A stretch of DNA of 64,000 nucleotides, from NCBI GenBank assembly GCA_965221125.1, contig CBDCRW010000007.1, positions 256,001 to 320,000 of the forward strand, in the 5' to 3' direction. Shown here in pieces: positions 13,780-54,097 of the stretch. Origin of the DNA: Alphaproteobacteria bacterium (GTDB lineage: Bacteria; Pseudomonadota; Alphaproteobacteria; UBA828). Position numbers and translations under genes: made by a program. Within the stretch, counting starts at the first letter, position 1. Every line of letters starts with the position of its first letter. The notes beneath the pieces are model-generated. The model ran no database searches. It was not told where the DNA came from and saw only the letters and a list, made by a program, of their open reading frames with translations.

Positions 13780-13835
13780 ATGAGCGCAGCCGCAGCCGAG
13801 GGAAATCAGTCCGCGTCCGAGCTTCGCCTAGTGTG
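13780..13835 (+). pseudogene. Displaced 5' end of the flavin oxidoreductase gene
   Basis: GGGAGG RBS, ATG, MSAAAAEGNQSASELRLV joins in frame to RLVWEPLEIG at 52091. Confidence 0.75.
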
Positions 13836-14123
13836 CACTATTATTGACGGTCAGTAGGCGAAAACACTGTGACGTAAGGGTCGCTTGTTCCTCCTGTATC
13901 GGGATTACGCTACAATGGGTTAGGATCGATGTCAAGGACAGATGAAGCGGGGTTGGAGAACACATGGGCTGATCCTGTGTCTCTGGGGAGTTGCACGAGG
14001 GGAACCGGGTTGTGGTGTTTGCTGTGGAGCACTGGTATGGTTCTGATGATGGACATGGACCTCTCTGCGAGGACACAATGGCGGCATATATTATCGGGCG
14101 CGAGGAACGCCATAGGAATATAT

Positions 14124-14168
14124 TGACATATTCCAGTATGTCACGGAGCTGCGTGTCTCTGTGGTTTC
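14124..14168 (+). other. Candidate oriT
   Basis: TGACATA-N6-TATGTCA inverted repeat then GCTGCGTGTCTCTGTGGT, resembling MOBF nic sites; upstream of RHH genes. Confidence 0.4.
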
Positions 14169-14193
14169 GGGGCCCTACGGACGGCTGCCCGCG

Positions 14194-14556
14194 ATGAGGG
14201 AGGATGCCGGCGGACGCCGCCAGCGCGCGGTCATGGCCACCGATGCGGAGTGGGAGCGGATCGGCCGGGCGGCTGCGGCGAGCGGCATGGACCTGTCGCG
14301 CTTCGTGATCCATCGCGCTCTTGATCGGGAGCCTCTGCCGCCGGAGGTCCTGCGCCGGGCGGTGCGCGAGATGCTGGTGCTGTCCAGACTGGAGGAAAGG
14401 CGGCTGCGCGGGGCGGGCGCCGGTGCGGCCTGGGAGGACGCCTGCGACGCGGTGGACGAATGGATCGACCGCGAGGGCATGCTCGACCGGCTCACCGATC
14501 CAGGTGCTGCGAACCGCTGGAAGGCGGCGGGGTCGACCGGGGAGGACCGATCGTGA
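14194..14556 (+). CDS. Ribbon-helix-helix (MobC/TrwA-like) protein 1
   Basis: RAVMATDAEWERIGRAAAASGMDLSRFV. Confidence 0.65.
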   Translation: MREDAGGRRQRAVMATDAEWERIGRAAAASGMDLSRFVIHRALDREPLPPEVLRRAVREMLVLSRLEERRLRGAGAGAAWEDACDAVDEWIDREGMLDRLTDPGAANRWKAAGSTGEDRS

Positions 14557-14864
14557 CTGAGGAGCCTGCGCGGCCCCTAAGACGTCAGCGGAGCCTGCAC
14601 TGCAAGCCGGCTGAACAGGCGATGATCCGGGAGCGCGCTGAGGCGGCGGACAAGACCGTGTCGCGCTATATTCTGGAGCTCGCGCTCGCCGACGATCCGG
14701 ACCGCCATCCCCTGGTGCTGACGGAAGCGGAACAGGTGGAGCAGAGGGACGGGGTACGGGAGTTGCAGGCATTCGTAAGGGCTCTGCGGCGCGAGCTTCC
14801 GGGGGGCAGCGGGCTCAGCCTGCTGAGCGCGATCTCCGTCCTTGCGCGGGAGCGTTCGTCGTGA
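14553..14864 (+). CDS. Ribbon-helix-helix protein 2
   Basis: RSLHCKPAEQAMIRERAEAADKTVSRYI; GGAGG RBS; GTGA overlap. Confidence 0.65.
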   Translation: MTEEPARPLRRQRSLHCKPAEQAMIRERAEAADKTVSRYILELALADDPDRHPLVLTEAEQVEQRDGVRELQAFVRALRRELPGGSGLSLLSAISVLARERSS

Positions 14865-15433
14865 GACGGACGCGGCGTCGGCGGAAGGCGCGCCGGCCGA
14901 GCCGGCACATCTCGATCTCGGCGACGGACGCGGATTGGGAGGTGGTTCGCAGCAACGCGGAGCGGCGCGGCCTGTCGATCGCGCGCTACCTGCTGGAGCT
15001 GGTGGAACGGGACAGTGAGGAAGAGGACGCAGGTCCCGAACTGGCGCTTGCCAAGGAAGAGCAGCGTGAGCAGCTGGAGGCGCTGCAGGAGGTCCGCGCG
15101 CTGATGCTGGAGGCGGAGGCGGAGGATGCAGGTCCGCTTGTACGCGATATGCAGGAGCGGATCGCGGTGATGTTCGCAGCCTGGGCGTCTGCGATGGCCG
15201 GGTCGGGCCGCTCGGAGGAGCTGCGGCTGGCGCTCGCCTCGGTGCTTGGCGAGGAGCGGGCGCGTATCGCTGCGGCCTCGGTCGTACCAACCTCGGTCGT
15301 ACCAACCTCGGTTGTGCCGGCCTCGGCCGCGGTCTCGACCGCGGTCTCGACCGAGGCGCCGGCCGCGCAGCAGGAGGTCGCGCCTCAGGCCCCTGACGGG
15401 GAGACGGACCCCGGCCAGGACCGCCTGCTGTGA
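14861..15433 (+). CDS. Ribbon-helix-helix protein 3
   Basis: ISISATDADWEVVRSNAERRGLSIARYL; GTGA overlap. Confidence 0.65.
   Translation: MRRTRRRRKARRPSRHISISATDADWEVVRSNAERRGLSIARYLLELVERDSEEEDAGPELALAKEEQREQLEALQEVRALMLEAEAEDAGPLVRDMQERIAVMFAAWASAMAGSGRSEELRLALASVLGEERARIAAASVVPTSVVPTSVVPASAAVSTAVSTEAPAAQQEVAPQAPDGETDPGQDRLL
15276..15353 (+). repeat. In-frame tandem repeats (15-bp CCTCGGTCGTACCAA and 12-bp GCGGTCTCGACC)
   Basis: Encodes SVVPT-SVVPT-SVVPA and AVST-AVST. Confidence 0.8.
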
Positions 15434-16718: not shown

Positions 16719-18047
16719 ATGAACAGCTCAGACGACGACCTTCGCCAACAGATCGCGCTCTTCCGATACGACGTCATCGCCGATCTGGTGCATCTGCCCG
16801 TGGGTGCACCGGGTGCCGGCGCGATGATGCGCGCCAAAGCCGAGAAGACCTACACGATCCCCGGAACCACCAGGACCCGGGTCGCCGCCGAGACCATGCG
16901 GCGCTGGATCAAGGACTACCGCTACGGCGGCTTCGACGCGCTCTACCCCAAGCCCCGCACCGACCGGGGGAAGCCCCGGCGGCTGCCGCCCGAGGTCGCC
17001 GAGCGCCTCATCGCGCTGAAGACCGAGAACGACGCATTGTCGGTTCGCGCCATCATCCAGAAGGTCAAGGAGGAGGGTATCGACCACCCGCTCGCCTCGT
17101 CCACCGTGCACCGCCTCTTCAGCCGCGAGGGCCTGTTCGACAAGAAGCCGCCCGACGGGGCGGATCGCCGCCGCTTCGCCTTCCGGCATGCCGGCGAGAT
17201 GTGGATGAGCGACGTCATGCACGGACCCAAGGTCCGGCACGGCCGAACCCGGCGCAAGACCTACCTGATCGCCTTCATCGACGACGCCACCCGCGTCATC
17301 CCGTTCGCCGCCTTCGCCATGGCGGAGAACACTGCGGCGTTCCTGCCGGTGTTCAAGGACGCGCTGATCCGGCGCGGCCTCCCGGCCCGCTTGTACGTCG
17401 ACAACGGAAGCGCCTACCGCTCCCGTCATCTCTCCCTGGTCTGCGCCAGGCTCGGCGTTGCGTTGATTCACGCAAGGGCGTTCCAGCCAGCGGGAAAGGG
17501 TAAGATCGAGCGCTTCTTCCGCACCCTCCGGGCCGGCTGGCTCCGCCACCTCGGCGATGACGTCGACAGCCTGGAGGCGCTCAACCGCAGCCTCTGGGCC
17601 TGGATCGAGGGGGAGTATCACAACAGCCCGCATCGTGGCCTCGACGAGGGGCGCACCCCGCTTGAGCAGTGGGCGCTGGCCTCGGCCGGCGTGCGCTATC
17701 CCGACGCCACCATGGACCTCGACGATCTGTTCCTCTTCGAGGCCAGGCGCCGTGTCTACAAGGACCGCACCGTTAGTCTGAACGGCCGCGTCTACGAGGT
17801 CGACGCCCTCCTGGTGGGTCAGAACGTCATCCTGCGCTACGACCCGGCCGCGCCGCCCTCGCGCCCTCTCGACGTGGTCCATGACGGCAAGCCGGCCGGC
17901 AAGGCCAGCCCTCTCGACGCCTACGCCAATACCGCCGTCAGGCGCACCTACCCGGCCAGGGAGATCGAGGCCGAAGATCCGGCGCCCGAGCCTCCGCCCT
18001 CGCCGCTGGCCATGCGCAACCTCAAGGACAAGAAGGAGGACGAGTGA
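16719..18047 (+). CDS. DDE transposase (rve core, Mu-transposase C-terminal domain)
   Basis: WMSDVMHG, AFIDDATR, LYVDNGSAY, KGKIERFF, RRVYKDRTVSLNG. Confidence 0.9.
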   Translation: MNSSDDDLRQQIALFRYDVIADLVHLPVGAPGAGAMMRAKAEKTYTIPGTTRTRVAAETMRRWIKDYRYGGFDALYPKPRTDRGKPRRLPPEVAERLIALKTENDALSVRAIIQKVKEEGIDHPLASSTVHRLFSREGLFDKKPPDGADRRRFAFRHAGEMWMSDVMHGPKVRHGRTRRKTYLIAFIDDATRVIPFAAFAMAENTAAFLPVFKDALIRRGLPARLYVDNGSAYRSRHLSLVCARLGVALIHARAFQPAGKGKIERFFRTLRAGWLRHLGDDVDSLEALNRSLWAWIEGEYHNSPHRGLDEGRTPLEQWALASAGVRYPDATMDLDDLFLFEARRRVYKDRTVSLNGRVYEVDALLVGQNVILRYDPAAPPSRPLDVVHDGKPAGKASPLDAYANTAVRRTYPAREIEAEDPAPEPPPSPLAMRNLKDKKEDE

Positions 18048-18847
18048 TGTACCTGCGCCACTTCGCCTTCACCCGCCTGCCCTTCGAGACCCCGGCAGAG
18101 ACCGACGAGCTGTTCGAGTCCAACGCGCGCCGCGAGGCCGAGGCCAGGCTCGGCCACCTCATCGACCTGCGCGGCATCGGCCTGCTCACCGGCGAGGTGG
18201 GCTCCGGCAAGACCACCGTGTGCCGGCATCTGACCGCGCAGCTTCATCCAGGCCTCTACCGGGTCCACTACGTCTCGCTGACCACGGGCAACGTGCTCGA
18301 CATGTACAAGGCGATCGCGTGGGAGATCGGCCTGCCCATCGAGCGCTCCCGCGCCTCGGCCTATCAGGCCATCCGAAACGAGATCTCCCGCCTCGTCACC
18401 GAGGCCAAGCAGCTGCCGGTCCTCGTCATCGACGAGGCCCATCATCTGCGCAACGACGTCCTTGAGGACCTGCGCCTGCTCACCAACTTCGCCATGGATG
18501 CAGAGCAGCGCCTGTGCCTCGTCCTCGTCGGTCTGACCGAGCTCAGGCGCCGCCTGGCCATGGCCATGCACGAATCCCTCAGCCAGCGCCTCGTCGTCCG
18601 CCACCACCTGAGCGGTCTCGACCGCGACGAGGTCGACGCTTACATCAAGCACCGCCTCAGGCTCGCGGGATGCGAACTGCCGCTGTTCGAAGAGCCCGCC
18701 GTCGAGGCCCTGTTCCAGGGCGCGCGCGGCCTGCCGCGCCAGATCAACCGCATCGCCCACTACGCGCTCTCCGCCGCCGCTCTCGACGAGGCGAGGACCG
18801 TCAGTGCCGACCACCTGCAGCACGCGCTCGAGGAACTGCGGCCATGA
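18044..18847 (+). CDS. ExeA/MuB/TnsC-like AAA+ ATPase
   Basis: GEVGSGKTT, VIDEAHHL, LVLVG, GLPRQIN. Confidence 0.88.
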   Translation: MMYLRHFAFTRLPFETPAETDELFESNARREAEARLGHLIDLRGIGLLTGEVGSGKTTVCRHLTAQLHPGLYRVHYVSLTTGNVLDMYKAIAWEIGLPIERSRASAYQAIRNEISRLVTEAKQLPVLVIDEAHHLRNDVLEDLRLLTNFAMDAEQRLCLVLVGLTELRRRLAMAMHESLSQRLVVRHHLSGLDRDEVDAYIKHRLRLAGCELPLFEEPAVEALFQGARGLPRQINRIAHYALSAAALDEARTVSADHLQHALEELRP

Positions 18848-20232: not shown

Positions 20233-21685
20233 GGTTGTGTCCCCAGACGTGGTGTAGGAGCTCCCGCTACCCCCGGTAGCTGTGGGTAACCGGCTTGGCG
20301 CCGCGACCGCCCTCGAGTCTGGTGGCGCCAAGCCGGTTATCCACAGCGGGGTGGCCATCGCGGTTCCGGTTTAGGGTTTGGGTGAATCCGAATCGACCCG
20401 AGCCTAAGGAGAACCACGATGACCGATGACAAGCTTACCCTGCGGACGCTGTTGGAGAAGAGCTCTGACGCCGATCTGCTGCGTGAGATGATCGCCTTCT
20501 CTGCGCAGCGCCTTATGGAGCTGGAAGTCGAGGGCCTGACCGGCGCCGAGCATGGCGCGCGGACGCCGGAGCGGATCAACCAGCGCAACGGCTACCGCGA
20601 TCGGCCTTGGGAGACCCGGGCCGGCACGGTCGACCTGAAGATTCCGAAGCTCAGGAAGGGGAGCTACTTCCCCGGCTTCCTGGAGCCCCGACGGACGGCG
20701 GAGAAGGCGCTCACGGCGGTGATCCAGGAGGCCTACATCCAGGGGGTATCGACCCGCTCGGTCGACGAACTGGTTCAGGCCATGGGCATGAGCGGGATAT
20801 CGAAGAGCCAGGTCTCGCGCCTTTGCGGGGAGATAGACGACAAGATCCGCAGCTTCCTCGACCGCCCGCTCGAAGGCGACTGGCCCTATCTCTGGCTGGA
20901 TGCGACTTACGTGAAGGTGCGCGAGGCCGGGCGCATCGTCCCGGTCGCGGTCACCGTGGCCGTCGCGGTCAACGACCAGGGCCGGCGCGAGATCCTCGGC
21001 ATGGCGATCGGCGCCTCCGAGGCCGAGACCTTCTGGACCGAGTTCCTGCGCTCGCTGACCAGGCGCGGCCTGCGCGGCGTGCAGCTGGTGATCTCCGACG
21101 ACCACAAGGGCCTGAAGGCCGCCACCACCCGGATCCTCGGCGCCACCTGGCAGAGATGCCGCGTCCACTTCATGCGCAACCTGCTGGCCCATGCCGGCAA
21201 GCAGGGCCGGCGCGTCGTCTCCGCCTTCGTCGCCACCGCCTTCGCCCAGGACGATGCCGAGGCCGCTGCCGCCCAGTGGCGCCTGATCGCCGACCAGCTC
21301 AGGCCCAAGGCCTCCAAGCTGGCGGCCCTCATGGACGAGGCCCAGCACGACGTCCTCGCCTACATGAGCTTCCCCAAGGAGCACCGGGTCAAGCTTCACT
21401 CGACCAACCCGCTCGAACGCGTCAACGGCGAGATCAAGCGACGCACCAACGTCGTCGGCATCTTCCCCAACGAGGACGCCATCACCCGCCTCGTCGGCGC
21501 CGTGCTGCTCGAGCAGAACGACGAATGGACCGTCGGAAGGAGGTACATGACGCTGGAATCGATCGCTCCCCTGAGCGACAATCCCACGATCAAGCTGTCC
21601 GCTGTGGCAGCCTGAATAACCCGGCCCTACCCGCCGGATGCCGCGTAAAGCGCGACGCTCTTACACCACTCCTCGGGACACGATC
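20233..21685 (+). mobile_element. IS256 family element
   Basis: TIRs GGTTGTGTCCCCAGACGTGGTGTA / TACACCACTCCTCGGGACACGATC; 8-bp TSD AATCAGGG (20225-32, 21686-93). Confidence 0.93.
20419..21615 (+). CDS. IS256 (Mutator) transposase
   Basis: [47 protein letters not shown]. Confidence 0.95.
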
Positions 21686-22409: not shown

Positions 22410-22496
22410 GCCGGCGGCGTCCCGCCTCTCCGCTCCGGCGTCCCGTCTCCCTGCGTCCGCCGCGCACCGACGCGCCCATGCGTGGGGCCTGAGCCG

Positions 22497-25400
22497 ATGG
22501 TCGCCACGGTGGTGGAGCTCCGCTCGTCCGCCATGGCGGTGACCTATTACGAGCGCGACGGCTACTACGCAAAGAACGACCCCGAGCACCGCCAGGCGAG
22601 CTTCTGGTACGGGGACGCGGCGAAGGCGCTGGGGCTCAAGGCCCATGTGCGTCCCTCGCGCTTCGAATCGGTGCTGTCGGGATACGTGCCGGGGACGGAC
22701 CTGCGTCTCGGCCGGATGCGCGAGGGGGAGCACGATCACCGGCCCGGCTGGGACATCACCCTGTCGGCTCCGAAGTCGGTATCGCTGGAGGCGCTGGTGA
22801 TGGGAGACCGCCGGGTGATCCGGGCTCACGACGAGGCGGTGCGCGCGACGCTGGCGTTCGTGGAGGCGGAGCTTCTTCAGACCCGGGGCTGGGACCCCGC
22901 GACCAGGCGCCGTCCCCGGGTGCAGGCGGAGGGCATGGTGGTGGCGGGGTTCCGTCATCTCGCGAGCCGCGACCAGGACCCGCAGCTGCACACTCACTGC
23001 GTGCTGGCCAACATGACGCGGAATGCCTCAGGCGAGTGGCGGAGCGTGGAGCCGACGAAGATCCGCCGCAGCGAGAAGCTGATCGGAGCATTTTACCGGA
23101 ACGAGCTCGCGCTGCGTCTCCAGGCTTTGGGTATGGCCGTCTCGCCGACCCTGGTGGGACGGGTGCCGGGGTTCGAGCTCGCGGGCTACGACCGCGCCTT
23201 CCTGGACGCGTTCTCGGGCAGGCGCCGCGAGATTCTCGCGTACCTGGAACGCCAGGACCTGTCCTATACGGCGAAGCACACGCAGATGGCGGCGCTGCAC
23301 ACGCGCCGGCGCAAGGAGGACAAGGGCCTTGCGGACCTGGTGCCGGAATGGCGCGCGCGGGCGCGGGCGCTGGGTCTGGTCCGGGAGAAGACGGCCCTCA
23401 GGCCGCCCCGCCCGCTCGACCCGGTGACCGGCGAGCGGGTGGGGTTGCCGCACGTGCCCCCACCCGACCTGCCGGCCAACGAGATCCGCAGCCTGAAGCG
23501 TGCGCCGGCGCTGCCGAAGCTGCCGGAGCAGCCCAGCAATGACATTGCCGAACGCGCGGGCACGCGTCCCGAGCCCTCCCGCTCACCGGCGCCGGCGGAG
23601 CTGTCGCAGGAGCCCGAGCGGGGCGTCCTGGAGGCGGTGGCGCGGGCTGTGGCGCACGTTGCTGAGAGGCGCACCGCGATCCCGGAGGCCGAGATCCGGG
23701 CGGTGGCGCTGGGCCATGCGCCGGGGCGCTACACCCTGGCCGAGGTCGACGGGGCGATCGCACGGCTGGTGTCCGGCGGCGAGCTGATCGAGGCGGAACG
23801 CCGGGGCATGGACCGGGCCTTCGTCACCGACCGGGCGGTGAAGGCCGAACGCCAGGTGCTGGCGTCGATGCGGGCGGGGCGCTCACGGGGAATGGCGCTG
23901 GCCGGCGCGGATGCCGTCGAGGTGCGGCTCGACGCGTCGCGTCTCACCAAGGGCCAGAGGGAGGCGGTCCGCACGGTGCTGCTGTCGAACGATCTCACGG
24001 TCGGCGTGCAGGGCCACGCCGGGAGCGGCAAGACCACCATGCTGAGGGAGGTGAAGGCGCTTCTCGGGGACAGGACGATACAGGGCCTTGCGCCCTCTGC
24101 CGCCGCCGCACGGGTTCTCGCCAGGGAGGCGGACATCCCCTCACGGACGCTGCAGCACTTCCTGACCCGCTTCAACGATCTCTCGGACCCGGCGCGGCTG
24201 GCGCGGGGCCGGGAGGAGTACGGGGGCGCGGTGCTGGCGGTGGACGAGGCCTCGATGATCGACACCGTGCGCATGGAGGCGCTGCTGCGCATCGCGCGCG
24301 ATCTGAATGTGGCGCGTGTCGCGCTGGTGGGCGACACGGCGCAGCTGAGGGGGGTGGATGCTGGAGAACCCTTCCGTCTGCTGCAGAAGGCGGGCATGGC
24401 GACGGCGACCATGGACGAGGTGCTGCGCCAGCGCGACCCGGCGCTGCGCGCGACGGTAGGCCGCGTCAGGGAGGGGGAGCCGGGCGCGGCGATCGCGGCG
24501 CTGGGCAACCGGGTGCGCGAAGTGCGGCGCGAGGAGCTCGGCATCGAGGCGGCGCGGCGCTGGCTCGCGCTGGCGCCTGTGCAGCGGGCGGACACCCTGA
24601 TCCTCGCGCCGACGCACGCCATTCGCCGGCAGGCGAACGAGGCGGCGCGCGAAGGGCTCGCGGAGGAAGGGGTCTTGCGGGGCCGCACGCTCGCCGTCGA
24701 CCGCCTGGTAAATCGGCGGCTCACCCGCGCGCTGGCCTCCGACATACGGAGCTACGAGCCCGGCGACACTATAGTGTTCCACCGCGACGTCTTCGGCTGC
24801 CGCGTCAACGACGTCTGCACCGTGATGGGCCACGACGGCGGCAGGGTCGTACTGGCGCATGCGGACGGCGAGCGCCGGTTCCGGCCCTCGGGCAATGCGG
24901 CGCGCTATCTGGGCCTCTACGACACCGAGCGGATCGAGCTGCGCGCCGGCGACCAAATCCGCTGGACGCGCAACCGCAAGGCCCCGCCCGCCCGCGGCAG
25001 GCATCCCCAGGCACCGGACCTGGTCAATGGCGGCGAGGCGAAGATCGTGGAGATCGGCTATGAGCGGGTGCGCTTCCGCGAGGGCGGCCGGGAGTTCGGC
25101 CTCTCGCTTACCGACCCACAGCTGCGCCATCTCGATCATGCGTACTGCTCCACCGTGCATTCTGCGCAGGGCCGGACGGCGCGGGCGGCGATCGCGGTGC
25201 TGGACGCGGGCGGCTGGGTCGACCGCGAGCTGTTCCATGTCGAGCTCAGCCGGGTCTCGGAAGAGTTCCTGCTGCTGACCGACGACCGCGACGCGCTCAT
25301 CGAGAGCATGGCATACGACCGGAGCGAGGACGGTGCGCTGGAGGCGCTGGGGATCGACCTTTCCGAGCCCCCCGTGGTGGACCCCGAAGAGTTCACGGCG

Positions 25401-27356
25401 CTGGCGGCGGACTGGCGGGCACTTCTGCGGAAGAGCGAGGAGACGAACACGATTCCATTTTTCCTGTCGGGCTACCGGGACACGATGGCCCAGGCTGCGG
25501 CGCTCGCGCAGATCGAGGATCTGCCGGAGGACATGCGCCGCCTCACCGACACCATGCTGGCGAAACACGAGGAGCATCTTGCGCATGACCGGGAAGTGCA
25601 GGGCCTCGTCGAGGGCATCCGGGACCATTGGCGGCGCTGGCCGGAGTTGGGCTGGGCGGCCTCCGCGCAGGGCGTGCCTGTAGAGAAACTTCCCGCACAC
25701 GCTGCCTGGCGCGAGGAAGGGGCGGCGCTCCTGGAGGCGGGCCGCAGCCTGGTGGAGGCGGAGGGCGGGGCGGCCCACCGCGTGGCGGCACACCATGAGG
25801 TGGTACACCGCCAGGTGGTACACCGCCAGGTGGTACACCGCGATGTGGCCCACCACCTCCATGCCATGCCGGGCGGGCGCGCCGGTCTGGAAGACGCCGT
25901 CGTTATGCTTGAACGCACGCGGCTCCTCGACGATGCCGGGCGCTTCGAACGCGCGTGGCACGCGCTTCGCGAGCGAGCGACGGAGAGCGTCGTCCCGGAG
26001 ATTTACGCGCCGGGCTACCGGCAGGTGGCGGCGCTTGGCCAAAAGCTCGTGCTCGCCGATCAGGGGCTCGATGAGCGCGCGCAGCGCGCGGTGGCGGAAT
26101 GGCGGGAGATCGGTACGGCGCAGAGGGCGCTGGCGGAAGAGGTGCGCGCCCTGCCCGGCCGTATCGCGGCGTGGCTGTCAGCGGACCTGCCGCAGGACGA
26201 GCCCGGCGGGCTCGATCCTGACCATCCCGTGCGGCAGTCCTGGCGCGGGGAAGGCGCCAGGATGCAAGCCATGGCCGGGGACATGCTGCGCCCCGAAGAC
26301 GCCCACGCGCCCTACCTGGACGCCGAACCGGGCGGGCGCGAGGCTGTCCGGCAGGCGGCCGAAGAGGTCGCCGACGCGCTCCGGCACGACGGCTACCGGG
26401 CATTCGGGTGGCTGACGAAGGAGGTGAACCGGCAGGCGCAAGAAACCCGGACCGAAGCGTTCCACGTGCCGCGCTACGGCGAGCTGGTCGCACAGGCCGA
26501 GGCGCTCTCCGTGCAGGCGGCGCTGCCGGCGCGCACGCAGGAGGTCGTCGCATCATGGCTCGGCTACCATGCCAGGTGCGAACCGCTCTGCCGGCAGATC
26601 CGGGAATGGCCCGCACTGCTGGACGCGCTCACGGCGGACTGCCCCGAACGTCCCGCGAGGCTCGACGCCCTGACTGACTGGCGGCAGCGGGCGGAGCCCC
26701 TGCTCGCCGAGGCCCGAACGATGATGGCGGAGGACGCCCCTCACGCGCCCCATCTGGACGCCATTCCGGGCGAGCGCAAGGCGCTGGCCGAGGGAACGGG
26801 CCGCCTCGACCGCGCGCTGATCGAGGTCGAGGCGCGGGAGACGGTCGTGCTGTCATCGGTCGTACAGAAGTGGGCTAACGAGACGGGCGGGATCGGCTTC
26901 GACAGCCGCGCCTATGACGCGCTGATGGAGCGCGCGCGTTCTCTCGATGCCAGGCCGCATCTGCCGGAGGATTTGCGCGGCACGGTCGACGGCCTTCTCG
27001 CCAGGGACGAACGCTGGGCGCTCGACAGGGATCGGGTCCAAGCATTCCTCGTGCGGGCCGCGGAGTTCGAGCGCGCGCGGAACGCTCTGACGCAGATGGA
27101 CGTCACGACCAACTCGTTCGAGGAGCGTCGACAGGCCCGGCAGGACTGCGAGCGGAAAGAGAAGGAGGTTCTCGACGAAGCGGTGGCAATCAGGAAGAAC
27201 ATGCCGCAACACGAGCTCGCCGCTCATCTGGCCGCCGCCGGCGCAGGCTCGGACACGGTCCGTGAGCGCGAAGAGGAGATCCGCAACAGGATCGCCCGGG
27301 AACAGGAAAGGCAGGCCGCCCTGCGAATGAGCCGCGACCGGGGAATGTCGATGTAG
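22497..27356 (+). CDS. trwC: MOBF/TrwC-type conjugative relaxase-helicase
   Basis: YYERDGYY, DITLSAPKSVS, HLASRDQDPQLHTH, GHAGSGKTT, DEASM, HAYCSTVHSAQGRT. Confidence 0.9.
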   Translation: MVATVVELRSSAMAVTYYERDGYYAKNDPEHRQASFWYGDAAKALGLKAHVRPSRFESVLSGYVPGTDLRLGRMREGEHDHRPGWDITLSAPKSVSLEALVMGDRRVIRAHDEAVRATLAFVEAELLQTRGWDPATRRRPRVQAEGMVVAGFRHLASRDQDPQLHTHCVLANMTRNASGEWRSVEPTKIRRSEKLIGAFYRNELALRLQALGMAVSPTLVGRVPGFELAGYDRAFLDAFSGRRREILAYLERQDLSYTAKHTQMAALHTRRRKEDKGLADLVPEWRARARALGLVREKTALRPPRPLDPVTGERVGLPHVPPPDLPANEIRSLKRAPALPKLPEQPSNDIAERAGTRPEPSRSPAPAELSQEPERGVLEAVARAVAHVAERRTAIPEAEIRAVALGHAPGRYTLAEVDGAIARLVSGGELIEAERRGMDRAFVTDRAVKAERQVLASMRAGRSRGMALAGADAVEVRLDASRLTKGQREAVRTVLLSNDLTVGVQGHAGSGKTTMLREVKALLGDRTIQGLAPSAAAARVLAREADIPSRTLQHFLTRFNDLSDPARLARGREEYGGAVLAVDEASMIDTVRMEALLRIARDLNVARVALVGDTAQLRGVDAGEPFRLLQKAGMATATMDEVLRQRDPALRATVGRVREGEPGAAIAALGNRVREVRREELGIEAARRWLALAPVQRADTLILAPTHAIRRQANEAAREGLAEEGVLRGRTLAVDRLVNRRLTRALASDIRSYEPGDTIVFHRDVFGCRVNDVCTVMGHDGGRVVLAHADGERRFRPSGNAARYLGLYDTERIELRAGDQIRWTRNRKAPPARGRHPQAPDLVNGGEAKIVEIGYERVRFREGGREFGLSLTDPQLRHLDHAYCSTVHSAQGRTARAAIAVLDAGGWVDRELFHVELSRVSEEFLLLTDDRDALIESMAYDRSEDGALEALGIDLSEPPVVDPEEFTALAADWRALLRKSEETNTIPFFLSGYRDTMAQAAALAQIEDLPEDMRRLTDTMLAKHEEHLAHDREVQGLVEGIRDHWRRWPELGWAASAQGVPVEKLPAHAAWREEGAALLEAGRSLVEAEGGAAHRVAAHHEVVHRQVVHRQVVHRDVAHHLHAMPGGRAGLEDAVVMLERTRLLDDAGRFERAWHALRERATESVVPEIYAPGYRQVAALGQKLVLADQGLDERAQRAVAEWREIGTAQRALAEEVRALPGRIAAWLSADLPQDEPGGLDPDHPVRQSWRGEGARMQAMAGDMLRPEDAHAPYLDAEPGGREAVRQAAEEVADALRHDGYRAFGWLTKEVNRQAQETRTEAFHVPRYGELVAQAEALSVQAALPARTQEVVASWLGYHARCEPLCRQIREWPALLDALTADCPERPARLDALTDWRQRAEPLLAEARTMMAEDAPHAPHLDAIPGERKALAEGTGRLDRALIEVEARETVVLSSVVQKWANETGGIGFDSRAYDALMERARSLDARPHLPEDLRGTVDGLLARDERWALDRDRVQAFLVRAAEFERARNALTQMDVTTNSFEERRQARQDCERKEKEVLDEAVAIRKNMPQHELAAHLAAAGAGSDTVREREEEIRNRIAREQERQAALRMSRDRGMSM
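25798..25842 (+). repeat. 3x 15-bp tandem repeat AGGTGGTACACCGCC in relaxase
   Basis: Encodes VVHRQ-VVHRQ-VVHRD. Confidence 0.85.
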
Positions 27357-46231: not shown

Positions 46232-47164
46232 CTAGAGATACCGTAGCGCCTCGCCGGCAGCCTCATTCCGCGTGTAGCGCGCGACCATCCGGGTCGTAGA
46301 CCATCGGCCCTGCCGCATGACGGCCGCAGCCGGAGCGCCGTTCCGCGTCATGCGTTGCGCTATGCCGACGCGGCCGGAATGCCCGGTGAAGCCGTCGCCG
46401 AGGCCGGCCGCCTTCGCAGCCGCGGCGATCCGGCGCGCAATCTGTCTGTCGCCGAGGCCGAAAACGCGATCCGGGCTGCCCCATCCGCCGCGTGTCGCGA
46501 GCCGGTCTAGATCGGCCATCGCCTCGCGCGTGAGCGCGACAACCGCACCCTCGCCAGCCTGATCCGTCTTTGACCGGGCGATGGTGGCGCGCCCGGACCC
46601 GTCCGCTTGCGGCTCGATATCGGCCCATGCGAGCGCTGCGGCTTCCGAGCGCCGCAAGCCCGCGTCTGCCACAACCGAGACAATCGCCATGGTGAGCACG
46701 TCGGCTGGCGTATCGGCCTCGCCATTGAGGCTGCCCCGGATCGCGGCGACGGCTTCGGCCGTGAGCGCTGCGGCCTGGCGCGGCCCGGCGCCGGCCTCGG
46801 CGGCCTGGCGCGCGAATCCCTGCATGGCGGTTTTCACGACGCGATCCGCGCACGGGTTGGCGTGATCGGCCAGGCGGTGCGCTTCGCCGATAGCGGCGAC
46901 GGCCATGCGGAGCGTCGCCATGCCGGCGCCGGCCTCGGCGCGGCTCGCGAGATACGCGGCGACGGCCCCGGCTTCGGCCGGGAGCTCGGCAGTGCCATGG
47001 GTTTCGGCCCAGGCGACCCAGGCCCGCCATGCGGAGCGGTAGGCGCGTCGCGTCGCGGGCGCCTTCGAGGCCGCGAGGGCGCTTTCGAGGCGCGCGCGTG
47101 TGGCCCCGTCGATTGCGGCGGGAGCGCCGGGCAAACTGCCCGTGTAAACGGCGAGTTTCGACAT
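46232..47164 (-). CDS. Cre/TnpS-like tyrosine recombinase
   Basis: ATRRAYRSAW N-domain, GLRRSE, RSKTDQ, GHSGRVG, GRW...MVARY. Confidence 0.88.
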   Translation of the reverse strand: MSKLAVYTGSLPGAPAAIDGATRARLESALAASKAPATRRAYRSAWRAWVAWAETHGTAELPAEAGAVAAYLASRAEAGAGMATLRMAVAAIGEAHRLADHANPCADRVVKTAMQGFARQAAEAGAGPRQAAALTAEAVAAIRGSLNGEADTPADVLTMAIVSVVADAGLRRSEAAALAWADIEPQADGSGRATIARSKTDQAGEGAVVALTREAMADLDRLATRGGWGSPDRVFGLGDRQIARRIAAAAKAAGLGDGFTGHSGRVGIAQRMTRNGAPAAAVMRQGRWSTTRMVARYTRNEAAGEALRYL

Positions 47165-47167
47165 GGC

Positions 47168-47683
47168 CTATCCTCCGAAAGTAAGCGCGCCGGGGCAGCC
47201 GGCATCCGGGCAACGCGCGGGGCCGCTGGCCGTCGCGCGGGCGATCCATGCCCGCGCCATGCGCAGCGTGAGGCCGCACGTGCCGCATTCGCCCTTCACC
47301 ATCCGGGGCGATTGCTTTGGGCGATCCGCCGGCCGAGCGGCAAGCGCGACGTGGCCCGCCGGGAACGGCCCGAGCGTATCGACGATGATGTGAAGGTGCG
47401 CTGGCACGTCCGCGAGCGGACAATTGCGGCGCGCCTTGCTCGGCTTGCCTATCAGCCCGATGGCGCGGGCCGCTTGCGAAAAGTCCCGGCGATGGCCCCG
47501 AATGCCTGCGGCGTGAACGAGCTCATGCGCGACGGTGCCGACGATCCGCCAGGGTTCATCGGCCCGGTGCCGGAACGAAACAGTCACTTCCGCGAGGCCG
47601 TCCGAAACGGCCGCCCGCTGGTAGGCGACTCCGGCGATCCGCGCGTCGCAGTACGCCGCTCCGATCCGCAGGGGCGGCCATCG
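47168..47683 (-). pseudogene. SprT-like metalloprotease, 5'-truncated by IS110 fragment
   Basis: AHELVHAAGIRGH...F and C-terminal ECGTCG...CP. Confidence 0.65.
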
Positions 47684-47685
47684 TC

Positions 47686-47972
47686 ATGCCCGGCGGCACG
47701 AAGATCACCTCGAAGCCCGTGCGCTCCAGCGTCTCGTAGACCGGTATCCGGTAGACCGAGTTCAACTCCATCGCCACCTTCGTCACGCCGCACGACGCCA
47801 GCCACGCCACCATCTCCTCCAGATCGCGGGTGAAGGCGCCGAACGAGCGCACCGGTTTCTCGGTCCGCTCCGGATCGACCGCCACGAAGTGCCGGTCCTT
47901 GCCAGTGTCGATCCCGGCGCAGCTGCGGTTGACCACCTTCAGGCCCTGGGCACGTCTCTTCTTGCGTGCCAT
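47686..47972 (-). pseudogene. IS110 transposase N-terminal fragment
   Basis: CAGIDTGKDRHFVAV...VAMELNSVY. Confidence 0.8.
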
Positions 47973-49668: not shown

Positions 49669-50841
49669 TTAAGAGCACGTGGAGTCAGTTGGCAAAGCTG
49701 ATCGCACAGCCAACTCCCGCGCGATGGAGGTGCCGATGCGCTCCGCCGCGGCCTCGGTCTCGCGGTCGCCGACGTGGGCATAGCGCAGCGTCATGCTAGG
49801 ACACTTGTGGCCAAGCAGGCGCGAGACCACCGGCAACGGAACGCCCTGCAGAACGGCATGGCTGGCGACCGTATGCCGAAGGTCATGAAGACGCACGTCC
49901 TCGATCCCGGCCTCCCTGCGCACCGCGTACCAGAGCGGCAGATCGGAGCACAGCGGCCGCCCCAGATCGAGCGGCGAGGGAAAGACCCAGGGGCTGTTAG
50001 ACCGCGGCTGCCGCTCAAGGATGGCGCGGGCCGGCGCATTCAGCAGCACCTGTCTCGGCCCGGTCTTGGCGTCGACGAGGTTGACGGTGTCCCCGTCCAC
50101 GTCCTGTCGGCGCATGGTCACGATCTCGCTCTTGCGGCAGCCGGTCAGCAGCAGCAGGCGGATGATGTCCGCCTGTTGCGCGCGCGAGGCCCGGTCTCCG
50201 GCATGGCGGTCCAGCGCGCGGTGAAGGCGGCCGATCTCTTCGCAAGACAGGAAGCGGGTGAGCTTGGGTCGGGGGTTTCGCTTGATGCCGTGCGTGGGGT
50301 TGGTATCGAGGTAGCCGCAGTCGATCGCATGGTTCAGGATCTGGCGGAGCACGTTCAACGCACGATTGGCCCCGCCGGGCGCGGTCCTGCTGTACTCGTC
50401 GAACCAGCGGGTCACGGCGATCCGGCCGATCCGGTCCAGCGGCATCGGGCCGAAGGCCGGAAGCAGGAGCCCGTTCAGGACCAGGCGTACACCCTTTTGC
50501 GTCGACGGCTTGCATGTGTCGAACCGCGCCTGCGCCGGACCGGCGACGAAGTCTGCGAAGGTCGGGACCGGTCCGCGTTCCGGCCTTCCGCCGGGTGGCG
50601 CGGTTTCGATTTCGAGGCACCGCGCACGCGCTTCCCCGACGCCCATGAGTGCGGCAGGTCCGAGAGTGATCCTGCGCGCGCCGCCCTCGCCCTTTCGGCA
50701 ATACACGAAGCTGCGGTGTCCCGACGGGCGGACGCGGACGCCGAGGCCCGCAAGGCGCGTGTCCCGAACCGTATACTCGCGCGCCGCCGGCTTCAGCCGG
50801 GCGACATTGGCGTCGGTCAGTCGCTGCCTCTTCGCGGCCAT
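49669..50841 (-). CDS. Tyrosine integrase B (arm-binding N-domain)
   Basis: GLGVRVRPSG, TGCRKSE, DAKTG, LHDLRH, LLGH...TLRY. Confidence 0.92.
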   Translation of the reverse strand: MAAKRQRLTDANVARLKPAAREYTVRDTRLAGLGVRVRPSGHRSFVYCRKGEGGARRITLGPAALMGVGEARARCLEIETAPPGGRPERGPVPTFADFVAGPAQARFDTCKPSTQKGVRLVLNGLLLPAFGPMPLDRIGRIAVTRWFDEYSRTAPGGANRALNVLRQILNHAIDCGYLDTNPTHGIKRNPRPKLTRFLSCEEIGRLHRALDRHAGDRASRAQQADIIRLLLLTGCRKSEIVTMRRQDVDGDTVNLVDAKTGPRQVLLNAPARAILERQPRSNSPWVFPSPLDLGRPLCSDLPLWYAVRREAGIEDVRLHDLRHTVASHAVLQGVPLPVVSRLLGHKCPSMTLRYAHVGDRETEAAAERIGTSIARELAVRSALPTDSTCS

Positions 50842-50844
50842 GGC

Positions 50845-51969
50845 TTATCCCTCCAGTGCGGCGCCGACGATGTCGGCCGCCTCGCGCACCAGGGTGTCGG
50901 ACAGATGGGTGTATTTCAGCGTCGTCGCCGGATTGCGGTGCCCGAGGAGACGGCCGATGGTCAGCACAGTCTCGCCCTGCGCGAGTGCCATGCTGGCGTA
51001 CGTGTGCCGGCAATCGTGAAGGCGGACGTCGGACAGACCGGCTTCCGCTCTGACGCGGTGCCAGAATTTGCCGAGCGTCACCGCGTGCACGAAGCCGTCC
51101 GTCCGCGGCGAGGGGAAGATCCAGGTTGCCGTGCGAGGTAGTCCGTCGAGGATCGCGCGCGCGGGGGACGAGAGCCAGACCGCGCGCGGCCCGACCTTGC
51201 TATCGCGCAGGAACAGCTTGCCCTCGCGGTAGTCGCGCCATTTGAGCGAGACGATCTCTCCCTTGCGGCATCCGGTGAGCAGGAGCAGCCGTACGATCGC
51301 CACGGCCTGCGGATTATTGGCCTCGTGGCGCGTCAGCACTTCGCCCAGCCGGCGCATCTCCGCCACCGACAGGAAGCGCTCCCGGCCCTGGCGGCGGTAG
51401 CGCTTGATGCCGGCGCACGGGTTGGTGCCCTCGGGCCGATAGCCGTAGACCTCGGCCTGGGTCATGATGACCGAGAGGACCGGAGCCGAGCGGTCGGCCG
51501 CCACCGGGGTCTCATGGAGAGAGGTGAACCATTGCCGGACGTCGCTCGCGGCGATGTCTGCGATGGGGCGCCCCTCGAACCAGGGCAGGATCTGGTTCTT
51601 GTAGTAGCCCCGGTTGACGTAGAGCGTCGAGGGCTTCCAGTTCCGGGCGTAGCGGCGGAAGACTTCTTCTGCGACCGTCTCGAAGGCGACGTCCGCGGGT
51701 GCTGCGGTCTCGTCGCCGTTACCGTTGCGGATCGCGGCCAGCAGGGTCCTGGCCCGGCTGCGGGCTTCGTCCAGGTCGATGGCCCCGGCCTGGCCGACGA
51801 TCTTCCAGAACCGCCGCCCGTTGTGCTGGCTGTGGATGAAGTAGCGTCTGGCGCCCGAGGTCAGGACCCTTACGCCGAAGCCCTTGAGTTCCCGGTCGCG
51901 CACGTCGTAAGCGGACTTGCGGGGCTTGAGCGCATCGATCCGGCGCTCGCTGAGGCGAACCATCGCCAT
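50845..51969 (-). CDS. Tyrosine integrase A (arm-binding N-domain)
   Basis: GFGVRVLTSG, TGCRKGE, DSKVG, LHDCRH, LLGH...TLKY. Confidence 0.92.
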   Translation of the reverse strand: MAMVRLSERRIDALKPRKSAYDVRDRELKGFGVRVLTSGARRYFIHSQHNGRRFWKIVGQAGAIDLDEARSRARTLLAAIRNGNGDETAAPADVAFETVAEEVFRRYARNWKPSTLYVNRGYYKNQILPWFEGRPIADIAASDVRQWFTSLHETPVAADRSAPVLSVIMTQAEVYGYRPEGTNPCAGIKRYRRQGRERFLSVAEMRRLGEVLTRHEANNPQAVAIVRLLLLTGCRKGEIVSLKWRDYREGKLFLRDSKVGPRAVWLSSPARAILDGLPRTATWIFPSPRTDGFVHAVTLGKFWHRVRAEAGLSDVRLHDCRHTYASMALAQGETVLTIGRLLGHRNPATTLKYTHLSDTLVREAADIVGAALEG

Positions 51970-52084
51970 TGACATTCCTCCTGCGTTCCGTTGCAGCCGG
52001 GGCGAAATCGGGGATCGATTCCGTGTCCTCCGGCAAGATCAGGAGGAAAAAAAGCAACTCTATGTCAGCATGTTAGAACCGTAG

Positions 52085-54097
52085 GTGCGCCGTCTGGTGT
52101 GGGAGCCGCTGGAGATCGGCTCCACCCGCGTGAAGAACCGGATCATGATGACCGCCCAGACCACGCTCTTCGGCAGGGACAACGTCCTCGGCGACCGCCA
52201 CATCGAGTTCTTCCGGGAGCGCGCGAAGGGCGGTGCCGCGCTCTTCATCACCGAGCAGCAGGCCGGCCACCGCATCAGCAAGGGCTCGTTCTTCGAAGGC
52301 TGCTCGGCGTGGGAGAAGAGCGCCATTCCCCAGTACGCCAAGCTCGCCGACGCGGTGCACGCGCACGGCGCGCGGCAGTTCGTCCAGCTCTTCGGCTGCG
52401 GCGTGCACGACAAGGGCACCATGATCATGGACGAGTGGCACCCGCTCTGGGGCGTCTCCAAGATGCCCTCGATCGTGCACCACGAGATGCCGATGGTCAT
52501 GGAGCAAGAGCACGTCGACGACGTGGTCAAGGGCTTCGCGGAGTCGGCGCTCAACGTGAAGGTTGCGGGCTGCGACGGGGTGGAACTGCACGCGGCGCAC
52601 AGCTACCTGCTCGGCCAGTTCCTGAGCCCCGCCTTCAACGACCGCACGGACCGTTACGGCGGCTCGGTCCGCAACCGCTGCCAAGTCCTGCTCGAGATCG
52701 GCGAAGCGATCCGCGCGCAGGTGGGCGACGACTTCACCGTCGGCGTCCGCATCTCCTTCGACGAGTTCATGGGCGACGCCGGGATCACGCCGGACCAGTC
52801 CGAGGAGCAGCTCGAGGTGCTCTCCACCAGCGGCCTCTTCGACTTCTTCAACATCTCGGGCGGCGGCTACTACACGCTGCACCGGGCCGTCTCGCCCATG
52901 AACGTCGAGAACGGCTTCATGCTGCCCTTCGCGAGGCGCGCCAAGGCGGTGGTGGGCAACCGCGCCAAGGTCTTCGCCGTTGGGCGGATCATCGACCTGC
53001 AGCAGGCGGAGCGTGCGCTCGCCTCGGGCGATACCGACATGGTCGCGATGACCCGCGCGCAGATGGCCGAGCCGCACCTCATCAAGAAGACCCGCGAGGG
53101 GCGGCAGAAGGAGATCCGCCGCTGCATGGGCGCGAACGAGTGCGTCGCTCGCCTCTTCGACAACCGGCAGGTGACGTGCGCGGTCAACCCGAGTGTCGGC
53201 CGCGAGGCGCGCTGGGGCAGCGAGACGCTGAAACGCGTGGCGCCCGAGGACGAGAAATCCATCATCGTCGTCGGCGGCGGCATCGCCGGTATGAAGACGG
53301 CCGCCGTCGCGGGCAGCCGCGGCCATCGGGTCGTGCTGCTGGAGCGCGAGGAGCGGCTCGGCGGCCACGTCAACCTGCTGATGGCGCTGCCCACGCGCAA
53401 GGAGTGGTCCACCGCCATTGACAACCTCGCCCGCGCCATGGAGGTCGCCGGCGTGGACGTGCGGCTCGGCGCAGAAGCGACGCCCGATACGATCGAGCGC
53501 GAGACGCCCGATGCCGTGGTCGTCGCCACCGGCGCGCGCTGGGACTGCAACGGCCGCAGCCAGTTCCGCCCTGGCAGCCCGCGCCTCCCCGGCACGGAGC
53601 AGGAGAACGTGATCGACGTCGGCACTGCCACGGAGCGGGCGCTCGCGGATGCGGGCGCGCTCGGGCAGCGGGTCGTGATCCTGGAGGAGACCGGCTTCTA
53701 CCTGCCTCTGGGCCTCGCCGAGATCCTGGCGGCAGGCGGTGCAGACGTGGAGATCGCGACGCCCCGCGCCATGGTGGGCGAGGATGCGATGCGCACCCTC
53801 GACCTCTCGTACGTGATGCCGCGGCTGGAGGAAGCCGGCGTGCGCTGCAGCGGGCACATGAACGCAGAGAAGATCGAGGGCAGTACGGTCCACCTCCGCT
53901 CGGTCTGGGGCACGCAGACGCGCGTCATCGAGGGCGTGAACACCGTTGTCATCTCGATGCTGCGCTCGCCCGACGACGCGCTCTACCGGGCGCTGGAAGG
54001 GCGCGTCGCGGAGCTGCACCGGGTCGGCGACGTGGTGGCCCCCCGCCGCCCGATCCAGTCCATGTACGAGGGCGAGGAGCTCGGCCGCGCGCTCTGA
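52085..54097 (+). CDS. NADH:flavin oxidoreductase (OYE/TMADH-FadH-like), native 5' end displaced
   Basis: KNRIMM, ERAKGG, ELHAAHSYLLGQFLSP, RTDRYGGS, CMGANEC, VVGGGIAG. Confidence 0.9.
   Translation: MRRLVWEPLEIGSTRVKNRIMMTAQTTLFGRDNVLGDRHIEFFRERAKGGAALFITEQQAGHRISKGSFFEGCSAWEKSAIPQYAKLADAVHAHGARQFVQLFGCGVHDKGTMIMDEWHPLWGVSKMPSIVHHEMPMVMEQEHVDDVVKGFAESALNVKVAGCDGVELHAAHSYLLGQFLSPAFNDRTDRYGGSVRNRCQVLLEIGEAIRAQVGDDFTVGVRISFDEFMGDAGITPDQSEEQLEVLSTSGLFDFFNISGGGYYTLHRAVSPMNVENGFMLPFARRAKAVVGNRAKVFAVGRIIDLQQAERALASGDTDMVAMTRAQMAEPHLIKKTREGRQKEIRRCMGANECVARLFDNRQVTCAVNPSVGREARWGSETLKRVAPEDEKSIIVVGGGIAGMKTAAVAGSRGHRVVLLEREERLGGHVNLLMALPTRKEWSTAIDNLARAMEVAGVDVRLGAEATPDTIERETPDAVVVATGARWDCNGRSQFRPGSPRLPGTEQENVIDVGTATERALADAGALGQRVVILEETGFYLPLGLAEILAAGGADVEIATPRAMVGEDAMRTLDLSYVMPRLEEAGVRCSGHMNAEKIEGSTVHLRSVWGTQTRVIEGVNTVVISMLRSPDDALYRALEGRVAELHRVGDVVAPRRPIQSMYEGEELGRAL

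Follow-up and report, generated by a model that had tools for sequence, protein, structure and literature searches.

The window analysed here is a stretch of 64,000 nucleotides from an alphaproteobacterial genome (GTDB lineage UBA828; GenBank assembly GCA_965221125.1, contig CBDCRW010000007.1, positions 256,001 to 320,000). It contains a genomic island placed within the first 19 codons of a gene for a flavin oxidoreductase of the FadH/old-yellow-enzyme (OYE) family, hereafter the flavoenzyme. We propose, with a probability of roughly 0.75, that the island entered when conservative site-specific recombination joined its attachment site to an 11-bp stretch of this gene, CGYCTRGTGTG, which encodes R-L-V-W (codons 16–19), and that the break in the gene is collateral to integration, not regulatory. 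The genome of the window is called G000, and the window's contig is its contig C7; related genomes are numbered from G001 onward.

Junctions of the island

On the left, the native 5′ end of the flavoenzyme gene is orphaned (13768–13857, + strand). A ribosome-binding site (RBS), GGGAGGG, at 13768–13774 precedes an ATG at 13780 and the first 18 codons; the same RBS, ATG and MSAAAAEG..LRLV stretch head an intact gene in 12 relatives. Translation from this ATG yields MSAAAAEGNQSASELRLV and then a foreign CTIIDGQ*, giving an open reading frame (ORF) of 25 codons that stops at TAG 13855–13857. The attL core, CGCCTAGTGTG, occupies 13825–13835, i.e. codons 16–18 and two bases of codon 19.

Island-specific DNA, a mosaic of 38,255 bp, extends from 13836 to 52090, and the attR core, CGTCTGGTGTG, follows at 52091–52101. 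From 52079 the right side reads CCG TAG GTG CGC CGT CTG GTG TGG GAG CCG..., where GTG 52085 opens VRRLVWEPLEIGSTRVKNRIMM. The two cores are identical at 9/11 positions and stand in the same codon phase; both mismatches (CGC/CGT and CTA/CTG) fall on synonymous third positions. An earlier note on this DNA, made from its letters alone, had described an island at the 5′ end of an OYE gene with two readable junctions: an orphan RBS and ATG at 13780, a frame resuming at 52091, and repeats matching at 9/11 positions in phase. All the letters are where it placed them, and the empty sites described below bear out the insertion itself.

GC content is about 0.70–0.73 in the flanks vs 0.48–0.63 in parts of the 27–50 kb region inside the island. 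No tRNA gene was found at either junction. Elsewhere in the window, ARAGORN called a 97-nt ‘tRNA-???’ with a two-base anticodon (gc) at 5248–5344, which is probably false.

In its present state the flavoenzyme ORF (52085–54097, + strand) counts 670 amino acids from the island's GTG, its native part beginning within the attR core. It has the two-domain FadH/OYE architecture, with PF00724 (Oxidored_FMN, E = 3e-59) at residues 6–343 and PF07992 (Pyr_redox_2) at residues 392–635. Against TIGR03997 (mycofactocin-system FadH/OYE oxidoreductase 2) it scores 578 bits, below the equivalog cutoff of 793. Among proteins of solved structure, its best relatives are NCR, trimethylamine dehydrogenase, histamine dehydrogenase and 2,4-dienoyl-CoA reductase; thermophilic OYEs also align. 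These alignments start at residues 3–18 of the solved relatives and at residues 4–6 of the island form, and the Oxidored_FMN profile begins at residue 6.

Empty and occupied sites in relatives

We searched the left flank (12900–13835) and the right flank (52085–53100) in 40 related genomes, 20 of them of the same genus. In 14 of these 20 (G001–G005, G007, G008, G010, G011, G013, G014 and G018–G020) the flanks abut on one contig, their matches overlapping by about 11 bases, and the island DNA between them is missing. Twelve of the 14 sites were read directly, G001 and G013 being judged from coordinates only. All 12 show a single uninterrupted gene that starts MSAAAAEGNQSASELRLVWEPLEIG, with the pattern ATG..MSAAAAEG..LRLVWEPLEIGSTRVKNRIM, behind GGAGG-N5-7-ATG. 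The earlier note had named two observations as fatal to its reading: orthologues starting at the position of GTG 52085 without an MSAAAAEG-like extension, or no relative in which the two flanking regions adjoin. Neither was made.

The native N-terminal tail counts 16–18 residues and varies in sequence and length among the 12 relatives (examples are MSAAAAEGNQSASELRLV, MSAAVVGRDRPASDLSLV and MSTTAAEGKGSELRLV); it is followed by an invariant LVWEP(L/M)EIG. Natural variants of the empty attachment site, attB, are CGTCTGGTGTG (five sites), CGTCTGGTCTG (two sites) and CGCCTAGTGTG, CGCCTGGTGTG, AGTCTGGTGTG, AGCCTGGTGTG and AAGCTGGTGTG (one each). In G012 the gene is present with a different upstream region, and no orthologue was found in G009, G016 and G017. 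The gene is thereby unbroken in 14 of the 17 same-genus genomes that have it.

The two remaining genomes, G006 and G015, are of two other species, neither of them closest to G000. In both, the flanks lie on separate contigs and each runs into island DNA at the same nucleotide as in the window, within one base. The right ends of these islands, integrase genes included, are about 90% identical to that of the window. Their left ends differ (CACTATTATT in the window, AAGAACCTAT in G015, ACAACCTATG in G006), as does their cargo. The direct repeats are CGTCTGGTGT/CGTCTGGTGTG in G015 (10/10) and CGTCGGGTGTG at both ends in G006 (11/11).

A tree built from the flavoenzyme gene's first 1 kb places the three carriers in three clades, each beside empty-site genomes: G000 with G020 and G007, G006 with G011, G018 and G008, and G015 near G005. 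Int1, the integrase gene nearest the right end, is 94.3% identical in DNA between G000 and G015, vs 88.4% for the host gene. Because the carriers are scattered in the tree and the Int1 genes of G000 and G015 are closer than their host genes, separate acquisitions appear the simpler reading of the three occupied sites, compared with precise loss elsewhere.

The island could instead be an old and immobile relic, the three occupied sites descending from one ancestral event with precise loss in most lineages. We consider this unlikely. Erosion within the island speaks for it (five or more transposase genes or pieces of them, a cargo gene that is split, a second relaxase that is truncated), as does the identity of the integrase DNA between G006 and G015, which at 91.9% is close to the 92.6% of the host gene. 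However, the tree placement and the G000–G015 identities given above point the other way. The two integrases and one relaxase are unbroken, as are the two ends; cargo and left ends vary between the three islands; and in contigs from other metagenome studies the same right end adjoins different flanks.

These contigs diverge from the window at 52090–52101, the same boundary as above. Those in data sets X5 and X18 carry the right end up to 52090 or 52101 and continue into other DNA, and a 386-nt contig of another study's metagenome, X4, spans 51988–52374 with nine differences. No contig from the likely source sample bridging 52090 was among the matches listed. X18 is a coral metatranscriptome, in which a 184-nt contig covers the family right end (window 51990–52101, five differences) and then unrelated sequence: the end of a sibling element is present in this RNA library, with DNA carry-over possible.

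A tandem integrase pair and its family

Two integrase genes lie in tandem beside the right end, both on the − strand. Int1 (50845–51975, 376 amino acids) stands 3 nt upstream of Int2 (49669–50841, 390 amino acids), and the two proteins are about 38% identical. Each matches PF13356 (Arm-DNA-bind_3), PF14659/PF22022 (central domain) and PF00589 (catalytic domain), as expected of P4-type heterobivalent tyrosine integrases. Each also has the complete R-K-H-R-H-Y catalytic set (with H-x-x-R), which is intact in 26/26 Int1 and 25–26 of 26 Int2 sequences of the family.

A search with Int1, taking one genome per species, gave 74 loci. The Int1 homologue is near full length at 34 of them, and at 25 of these a likewise near-full-length Int2 homologue follows 6–41 nt downstream. 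In the other nine, a contig ends at or within Int2 (L030, L042, L043, L056), Int2 carries an insertion (L035) or is left as fragments (L046, L065), the neighbour is too divergent to score as Int2 (L059), or the locus is a singleton, 31% identical (L071). Identities of Int1 and Int2 co-vary with r = 0.98, across loci that are related to each other. Comparison of 16 loci by Pfam and tblastn revealed no additional gene shared behind Int2, whether third or fourth (a GinC/GinD or Tfp/Srap counterpart, or an excisionase); downstream of Int2 there is only a short conserved stretch of DNA, in 4 of the 16.

The 4.6-Mb genome G000 itself holds about ten tandem P4-type pairs, besides several single integrase copies. 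Five belong to the Int1/Int2 family, including that of the window (the Int1 of the other four is about 61% identical), and five are distant, at about 40% identity. Examples of tandem pairs are C4:444538–446786, C2:4543–6788, C3:9172–11378, C6:236289–238535, C4:213569–215923, C7:62865–65234, C5:9097–11417, C7:17979–20341 and C4:11805–14157. With at least five family members and five more distant pairs, such elements make up a large share of one symbiont genome.

Ends of the elements

The right end of the island (51976–52090) comprises a subterminal repeat at about 52037–52074, with AGGAGG at 52042, and an end motif, AGAACCGTAGGTGCGC, at 52075–52090. We compared it across the 32 loci that had sequence available upstream of Int1 and an Int1 at least about 45% identical; the other 42 of the 74 were dropped before the motif count, being partial, cut by a contig end, 40–48% identical without a recognisable motif, or distant. 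The motif is conserved in 32/32 right ends: all carry ACCG-N-AGGTGCG, then 6–7 variable bases, then GGTGT (31/32), after which the flanks are unrelated.

Aligned locally with the reverse complement of the right end, the left end shows an inverted copy of the 52037–52074 motif (..TGACGTAAGGGTCGC-TTGTTCCTCCTG.., 13863–13900, + strand). This block of about 40 nt, CAGGAGGAA..GCAAC..GTCA..TGTT, recurs inverted near the left end in G015 and G006 as well. The subterminal inverted repeats are probably arm-type binding sites for the integrases.

A different core site had been suggested by the earlier note, namely the imperfect dyad GTGCGC-N8-GTGCAC formed by joining the island ends. It can indeed be written for the window, where it depends on a CAC after the core. 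We rejected it because its right half is unconserved in four sister left ends, reading GTAAGA in G015, GTGACA in G006 and L149, and GTGCAG in another element of G000, on contig C6.

The same note had pointed to GTG 52085, with a TAG directly before it, as a substitute start supplied by the island. Both are present in the letters, and both are part of the motif shared by 32/32 family ends; they are therefore not tailored to the flavoenzyme gene. Nor is AGGAGG 52042 our primary choice as RBS of the truncated gene: the GTG is 37 nt away, and the left end carries a mirror copy. A mini-ORF from ATG 52070 to TAG 52082–52084, coupled to the GTG, was likewise set aside, its ATG being present in G015 and absent in G006. 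Scans of both ends for promoters and terminators gave nothing promoter-like on the right; on the left, all matches were weak.

Some further ends were noted in passing. In G000, outside the window, C7:523032–523080 resembles a family right end (nhmmer E = 5e-7) without an adjoining integrase match, and is possibly a remnant. At L030:3230–3330 the apparent flank resembles a family left end joined through a core to a right end. Rather than a chromosomal target, it would be the left end of another element, or a junction of attP-like or tandem type. In L128 (G011:C3, around 7600) the left end of L030 is joined to a different right end (..GCACCTAAGGGTGCG TCG GGTGTG AGATAG..). Both junctions could be attP-like, from circular or tandem elements.

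Targets of sibling elements

As the earlier note had proposed, we surveyed where homologous integrase pairs are inserted, identifying the ORFs in their flanks by Pfam. The targets are diverse. Of the 74 loci, just L031 and L056 border on the flavoenzyme gene, and these two are the G006 and G015 junctions themselves. Others sit near the 3′ end of a DDE_3 transposase gene (L029) or of a cytochrome b561 gene (L033), or within coding domains: a TrwB coupling protein (L035, profile position 95 of 387), a phage portal gene (L040, 200 of 489), two TauD genes (L053, 106 of 267; L050, 37 of 267), an isochorismatase gene (L051, 132 of 175) and an rve domain (L055). L065 lies at a tRNA 3′ end, and L038, L041 and L043 are in intergenic DNA.

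A second element of G000 (C6:182281–238654) is flanked by a perfect repeat, TAGGCGGTGT (10/10), and splits a PhyH dioxygenase gene of 290 codons at about codon 116; its site is empty in five relatives, and its core-plus-end string is found in G041 too. For a third (around C4:444344–472863), the flanks are adjacent in five relatives, but no repeat could be defined at the intergenic junction, which has diverged too far.

Since sibling elements cut PhyH, TauD, phage portal and coupling-protein genes mid-way, disruption of the flavoenzyme gene looks collateral to integration rather than a regulatory device. The family does not spare its targets, and the hit on a dispensable tail of the flavoenzyme therefore looks like luck.

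This bears directly on the idea, raised by the earlier note, that excision could act as a switch: a domesticated element would keep the enzyme off and leave under certain conditions, as the skin element does in sigK or the prophage in comK. Precise excision would indeed give back the exact native frame, both integrases are intact and the site has been used repeatedly within the genus. Still, we regard such regulated gene integrity as highly improbable. The family is also found in transposase, phage portal, coupling-protein, TauD and PhyH genes, in a tRNA and in intergenic DNA, and because it inserts in so many unrelated places the identity of the OYE target looks incidental. The island carries a relaxase and much insertion-sequence (IS) debris, typical of a selfish mobilizable element; the gene is unbroken in most same-genus genomes having it; and we found no regulatory link, no tie to host physiology and no outward promoter resembling a sigma-70 site. 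Although excision would restore the gene, a switch is unneeded.

Target choice and a proposed shift of cores

Direct repeats in four elements (9/11, 10/10, 11/11 and 10/10) show the core of the element to be a near-copy of 10–11 bases of its target. Two siblings with closely similar integrases have other variable bases in their cores. L029 (Int1 93% identical) has the attR CGGCGGGTGTG, identical to unbroken copies of its target, an IS630-type transposase gene; an attL in the same genome, G041, links the remaining portion of one such IS copy with CGTCGGGTGTG and with a left end of the family type. The OYE site of that genome, CGCCTAGTGTG, is empty and three mismatches away from the element's core. 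In L032 (Int1 92%) the core is CTGATGGTGTT and the target CTGAATGTGTT, while the OYE site of its genome, CGCCTGGTGTG, is empty.

The following mechanism is consistent with these observations. Int1 and Int2 would act jointly on an attachment site made of ACCG-N-AGGTGCG, 5–6 variable bases and GGTGT(G). The target would be picked largely by identity to the 10–11 core bases, and the core would change upon recombination with an imperfectly matching site. Such a change would explain how integrases that are 92–93% identical come to lie at different targets.

The core variants in the window and in L029/L149 share a polarity: the one matching the local or closest-relative attB is at attR, and a foreign one at attL. 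In the window, attR is the variant read in G020, the closest relative with an empty OYE site (CGTCTGGTGTG), and attL is the empty attB of G018 and G041 (CGCCTAGTGTG). Two informative cases are too few to establish a rule. As for a motif outside the core, GAGCTTC was tried as a shared left-arm target and rejected: it precedes the core in the OYE site and in the L032 target, and not in the L029 target (GGCATTC/GGCACTC).

A broader claim can be put forward tentatively, with the odds somewhat against it. Int1 and Int2 may form an obligate two-subunit P4-type recombinase whose target is set mainly by the 11-bp core of the element (five freely variable bases plus GGTGTG), this core being rewritten at each recombination with a near match. 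It would then be a naturally reprogrammable integrase, hopping between unrelated genes with proteins more than 90% identical, at about ten pairs per genome in this marine symbiont lineage.

Fate of the flavoenzyme gene

Under our proposal of collateral integration, the gene's promoter, RBS and first 18 codons would be stranded at attL, and the other 652 codons would follow the element end with a chance in-frame GTG (VRRLVWEPLE...). Precise excision would rebuild the gene. Judged by Pfam and solved homologues, the lost part is only the variable tail outside the fold, and the whole catalytic fold is kept. There is no Shine-Dalgarno sequence within 15 nt of GTG 52085, and a crude scan of 51700–52300 found no sigma-70-like promoter. 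The island genes adjoining the flavoenzyme point the opposite way, and its native promoter, RBS and start are 38 kb off. With no promoter or RBS evident at the island end, the flavoenzyme is probably silent or poorly expressed as long as the island stays in place.

Alternatively, the island end might restore what it displaces, supplying a working GTG start and an outward promoter so that MRRLV replaces the 18-residue tail; integration would then be neutral, as with dusA islands. The GTG is in frame at all three islands in the OYE site, the native tail is variable among relatives and lies outside the fold of the Pfam domain and of solved homologues, and the ORF is intact with unchanged dN/dS in the three island-bearing genomes. 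Integrase islands known as GInts and dusA islands are moreover reported to transcribe into their target or replace its 5′ end (PMC5385486, PMC4482086). We nevertheless find restoration doubtful. The GTG and its preceding TAG belong to the motif of all 32 family ends, whatever the flank, which makes the frame match a 1-in-3 accident. The start lacks a nearby Shine-Dalgarno sequence; AGGAGG, 37 nt upstream, is one arm of the inverted repeat; no promoter was seen in the crude scan; the ATG of the upstream mini-ORF is absent in G006; and sibling elements destroy their targets.

Gene content of the island

Gene content was defined by Pfam and NCBIfam scans of 67 ORF translations. Near the left end, on the + strand, three ORFs (14161–14556, 14460–14864 and 14861–15433) resemble NikA, a ribbon-helix-helix mobilization accessory protein (PF21983, E = 2.9e-5, 5.6e-6 and 4.4e-3, all at or below the gathering score). 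As they overlap or abut, these weak matches may represent a triplicated accessory gene or a frameshifted array. Inserted transposition genes follow at 16719–18847 (+), encoding an rve/Mu-transposase-C protein (16719–18047) and an AAA_22/TniB-like ATPase (18044–18847), and then an IS256-family (Mutator-type) transposase gene at 20419–21615 (+; PF00872, E = 7e-122).

An intact MOBF relaxase-helicase of 1624 amino acids, with a TrwC domain and an AAA_30 helicase, is encoded at 22482–27356 (+; PF08751, E = 8e-76; NCBIfam MobF NF041492, 257 bits with a cutoff of 100). A second relaxase remains as the end of a TrwC domain and the start of AAA_30 (29442–30370, +), cut by an IS1595 transposase gene at 30428–31363. 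Next comes a gene with ankyrin, peptidoglycan-binding and FGE-sulfatase domains (31548–35702, +), whose main part (31548–33395) is split from its tail (35412–35702) by a transposase gene on the − strand at 33595–35382. In the latter, an ORF of 595 amino acids, a Druantia DruA-like domain (PF14236, E = 2e-21) is found together with DDE_Tnp_1-associated and DDE_Tnp_1 domains.

Towards the right end, a third, unrelated and weaker tyrosine-recombinase-like ORF (46232–47164, −; PF00589, E = 1.9e-14) stands beside an IS110 fragment (47556–47972; Pfam). Further genes encode an AAA_25 protein, a methyltransferase and two DUF4189/peptidoglycan-binding proteins.

By its ends and gene content, the island is an IS-riddled integrative mobilizable element of about 38.3 kb. 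Int1 and Int2 lie 115 nt from attR, between att repeats matching at 9/11 positions and with empty sites in most same-genus genomes. A MobF relaxase above the NCBIfam cutoff and the NikA-like ORFs come without mating-pore genes: none of the 67 ORF translations matched a Pfam family of type IV secretion or coupling proteins, several of them matching no family at all. No oriT was located.

On comparing a relative's locus (L115, 3796–3940) with the whole genome, we also came across a dispersed repeat of about 145 nt, its copies 75–95% identical. It occurs in the window at 262–416 (C7:256262–256416) and 63849–64000 (C7:319849–320011) and at more than 50 other places in G000, and looks REP- or MITE-type.

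Evidence against the proposed reading

Several observations weigh against our proposal. In 13/13 genomes the flavoenzyme ORF is unbroken, measuring 1998 nt from the W codon, and dN/dS is 0.087–0.129 for island-bearing pairs vs 0.062–0.136 for empty pairs: an undecayed gene fits continued function as well as recent insertion. The island may no longer move, given its heavy IS erosion and second relaxase remnant. Public runs, in the form of contigs, gave no direct evidence for excision, a circular form or transfer, and no recombination directionality factor was identified. G000 is a metagenome-derived assembly with an estimated contamination of 5.8%.

The retargeting argument, for its part, is based on few elements. 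For L032 only attR and attB were seen. The attR of L029 (G041:C12:35372–35394, +) and the only matching attL (G041:C12:276804, −) are 241 kb apart and inverted, which suggests an inversion between element copies or att sites; the two may not come from one simple insertion. Finally, classical lambda-type integrases dislike heterology in the overlap. Two mismatches between the cores of the window mean either that heterology is tolerated here or that the exchange is confined to GTGTG.

Comparison with known systems

One of the closest likenesses is with the dusA-specific islands and prophages (Farrugia et al. 2015, PMC4482086). In both cases a tyrosine integrase is found at the junction, the gene hit at its 5′ end encodes an FMN-binding TIM-barrel enzyme, sequence of the element stands in for the displaced native 5′ end, and excision restores the gene. 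The island described here is set apart by its target, an Oxidored_FMN/Pyr_redox_2 gene instead of dusA. It also has two tandem integrases instead of one, and its start is provided by a family-wide end motif, whereas the dusA islands bring a tailored copy of the 5′ end. What is lost here is only an N-terminal tail outside the fold; dusA gives up a barrel strand, for which the island provides a substitute.

GInts (2017, PMC5385486) share with our island a multi-integrase operon at one end, adjoining and divergent from the 5′ end of the target, as well as imperfect direct repeats of 10–11 nt. GInt variants arising from the resolution of mismatched overlaps shift the frequency and specificity of integration, and the att variants reported above may follow the same logic. 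GInts need ginABCD, that is three recombinase-like genes and a small helix-loop-helix gene, and are described as non-mobilizable. The Int1/Int2 family differs in having two conserved integrase genes; the third recombinase-like ORF of the window lies 2.5 kb off, behind an IS fragment. Both its integrases bear P4-type arm-binding domains, its elements carry relaxases, and its hosts are marine, sponge- or coral-associated Alphaproteobacteria.

With SEs (strand-biased circularizing integrative elements; Idola et al. 2023, PMC10214605) and Tn554, the island has in common two catalytically complete tyrosine recombinases and imperfect terminal inverted repeats. There, too, a short variable spacer from the previous site is left at one particular junction, to which the foreign core at attL would correspond in our two cases. 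According to the same paper, SEs carry intA-tfp-intB-srap with one large recombinase, occur in Gammaproteobacteria only and leave no empty site, and Tn554 has TnpA, TnpB and TnpC. In contrast, Int1 and Int2 are a P4-type pair of similar size, 3 nt apart, with no gene between them and no conserved small gene after; empty sites are common in relatives.

Islands that insert into the 5′ end of protein-coding genes are familiar, and the present one adds one more target gene. SXT/R391 elements in prfC are another example, in which the element supplies a new 5′ end; unlike the Int1/Int2 family, islands of that type are self-conjugative, rely on one integrase and keep to one fixed target. In line with the earlier note, which did not recognise its protein-coding target as described, we found no paper naming an OYE/FadH attachment site, and none on tandem P4-type integrase pairs of this kind, in full-text searches, supplementary tables and island databases being outside their scope.

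The single insertion is ordinary; the part worth following is a two-integrase family with a shifting core. It offers a natural series of two co-inherited arm-binding integrases, catalytically complete and 92–93% identical, whose elements lie at different sites, each site matching the five variable bases of the element's own core. If the core rule holds, it would explain how site-specific elements change target without a change in protein, and would provide a compact system to test integrase reprogramming through the core alone, of practical interest for genome engineering.

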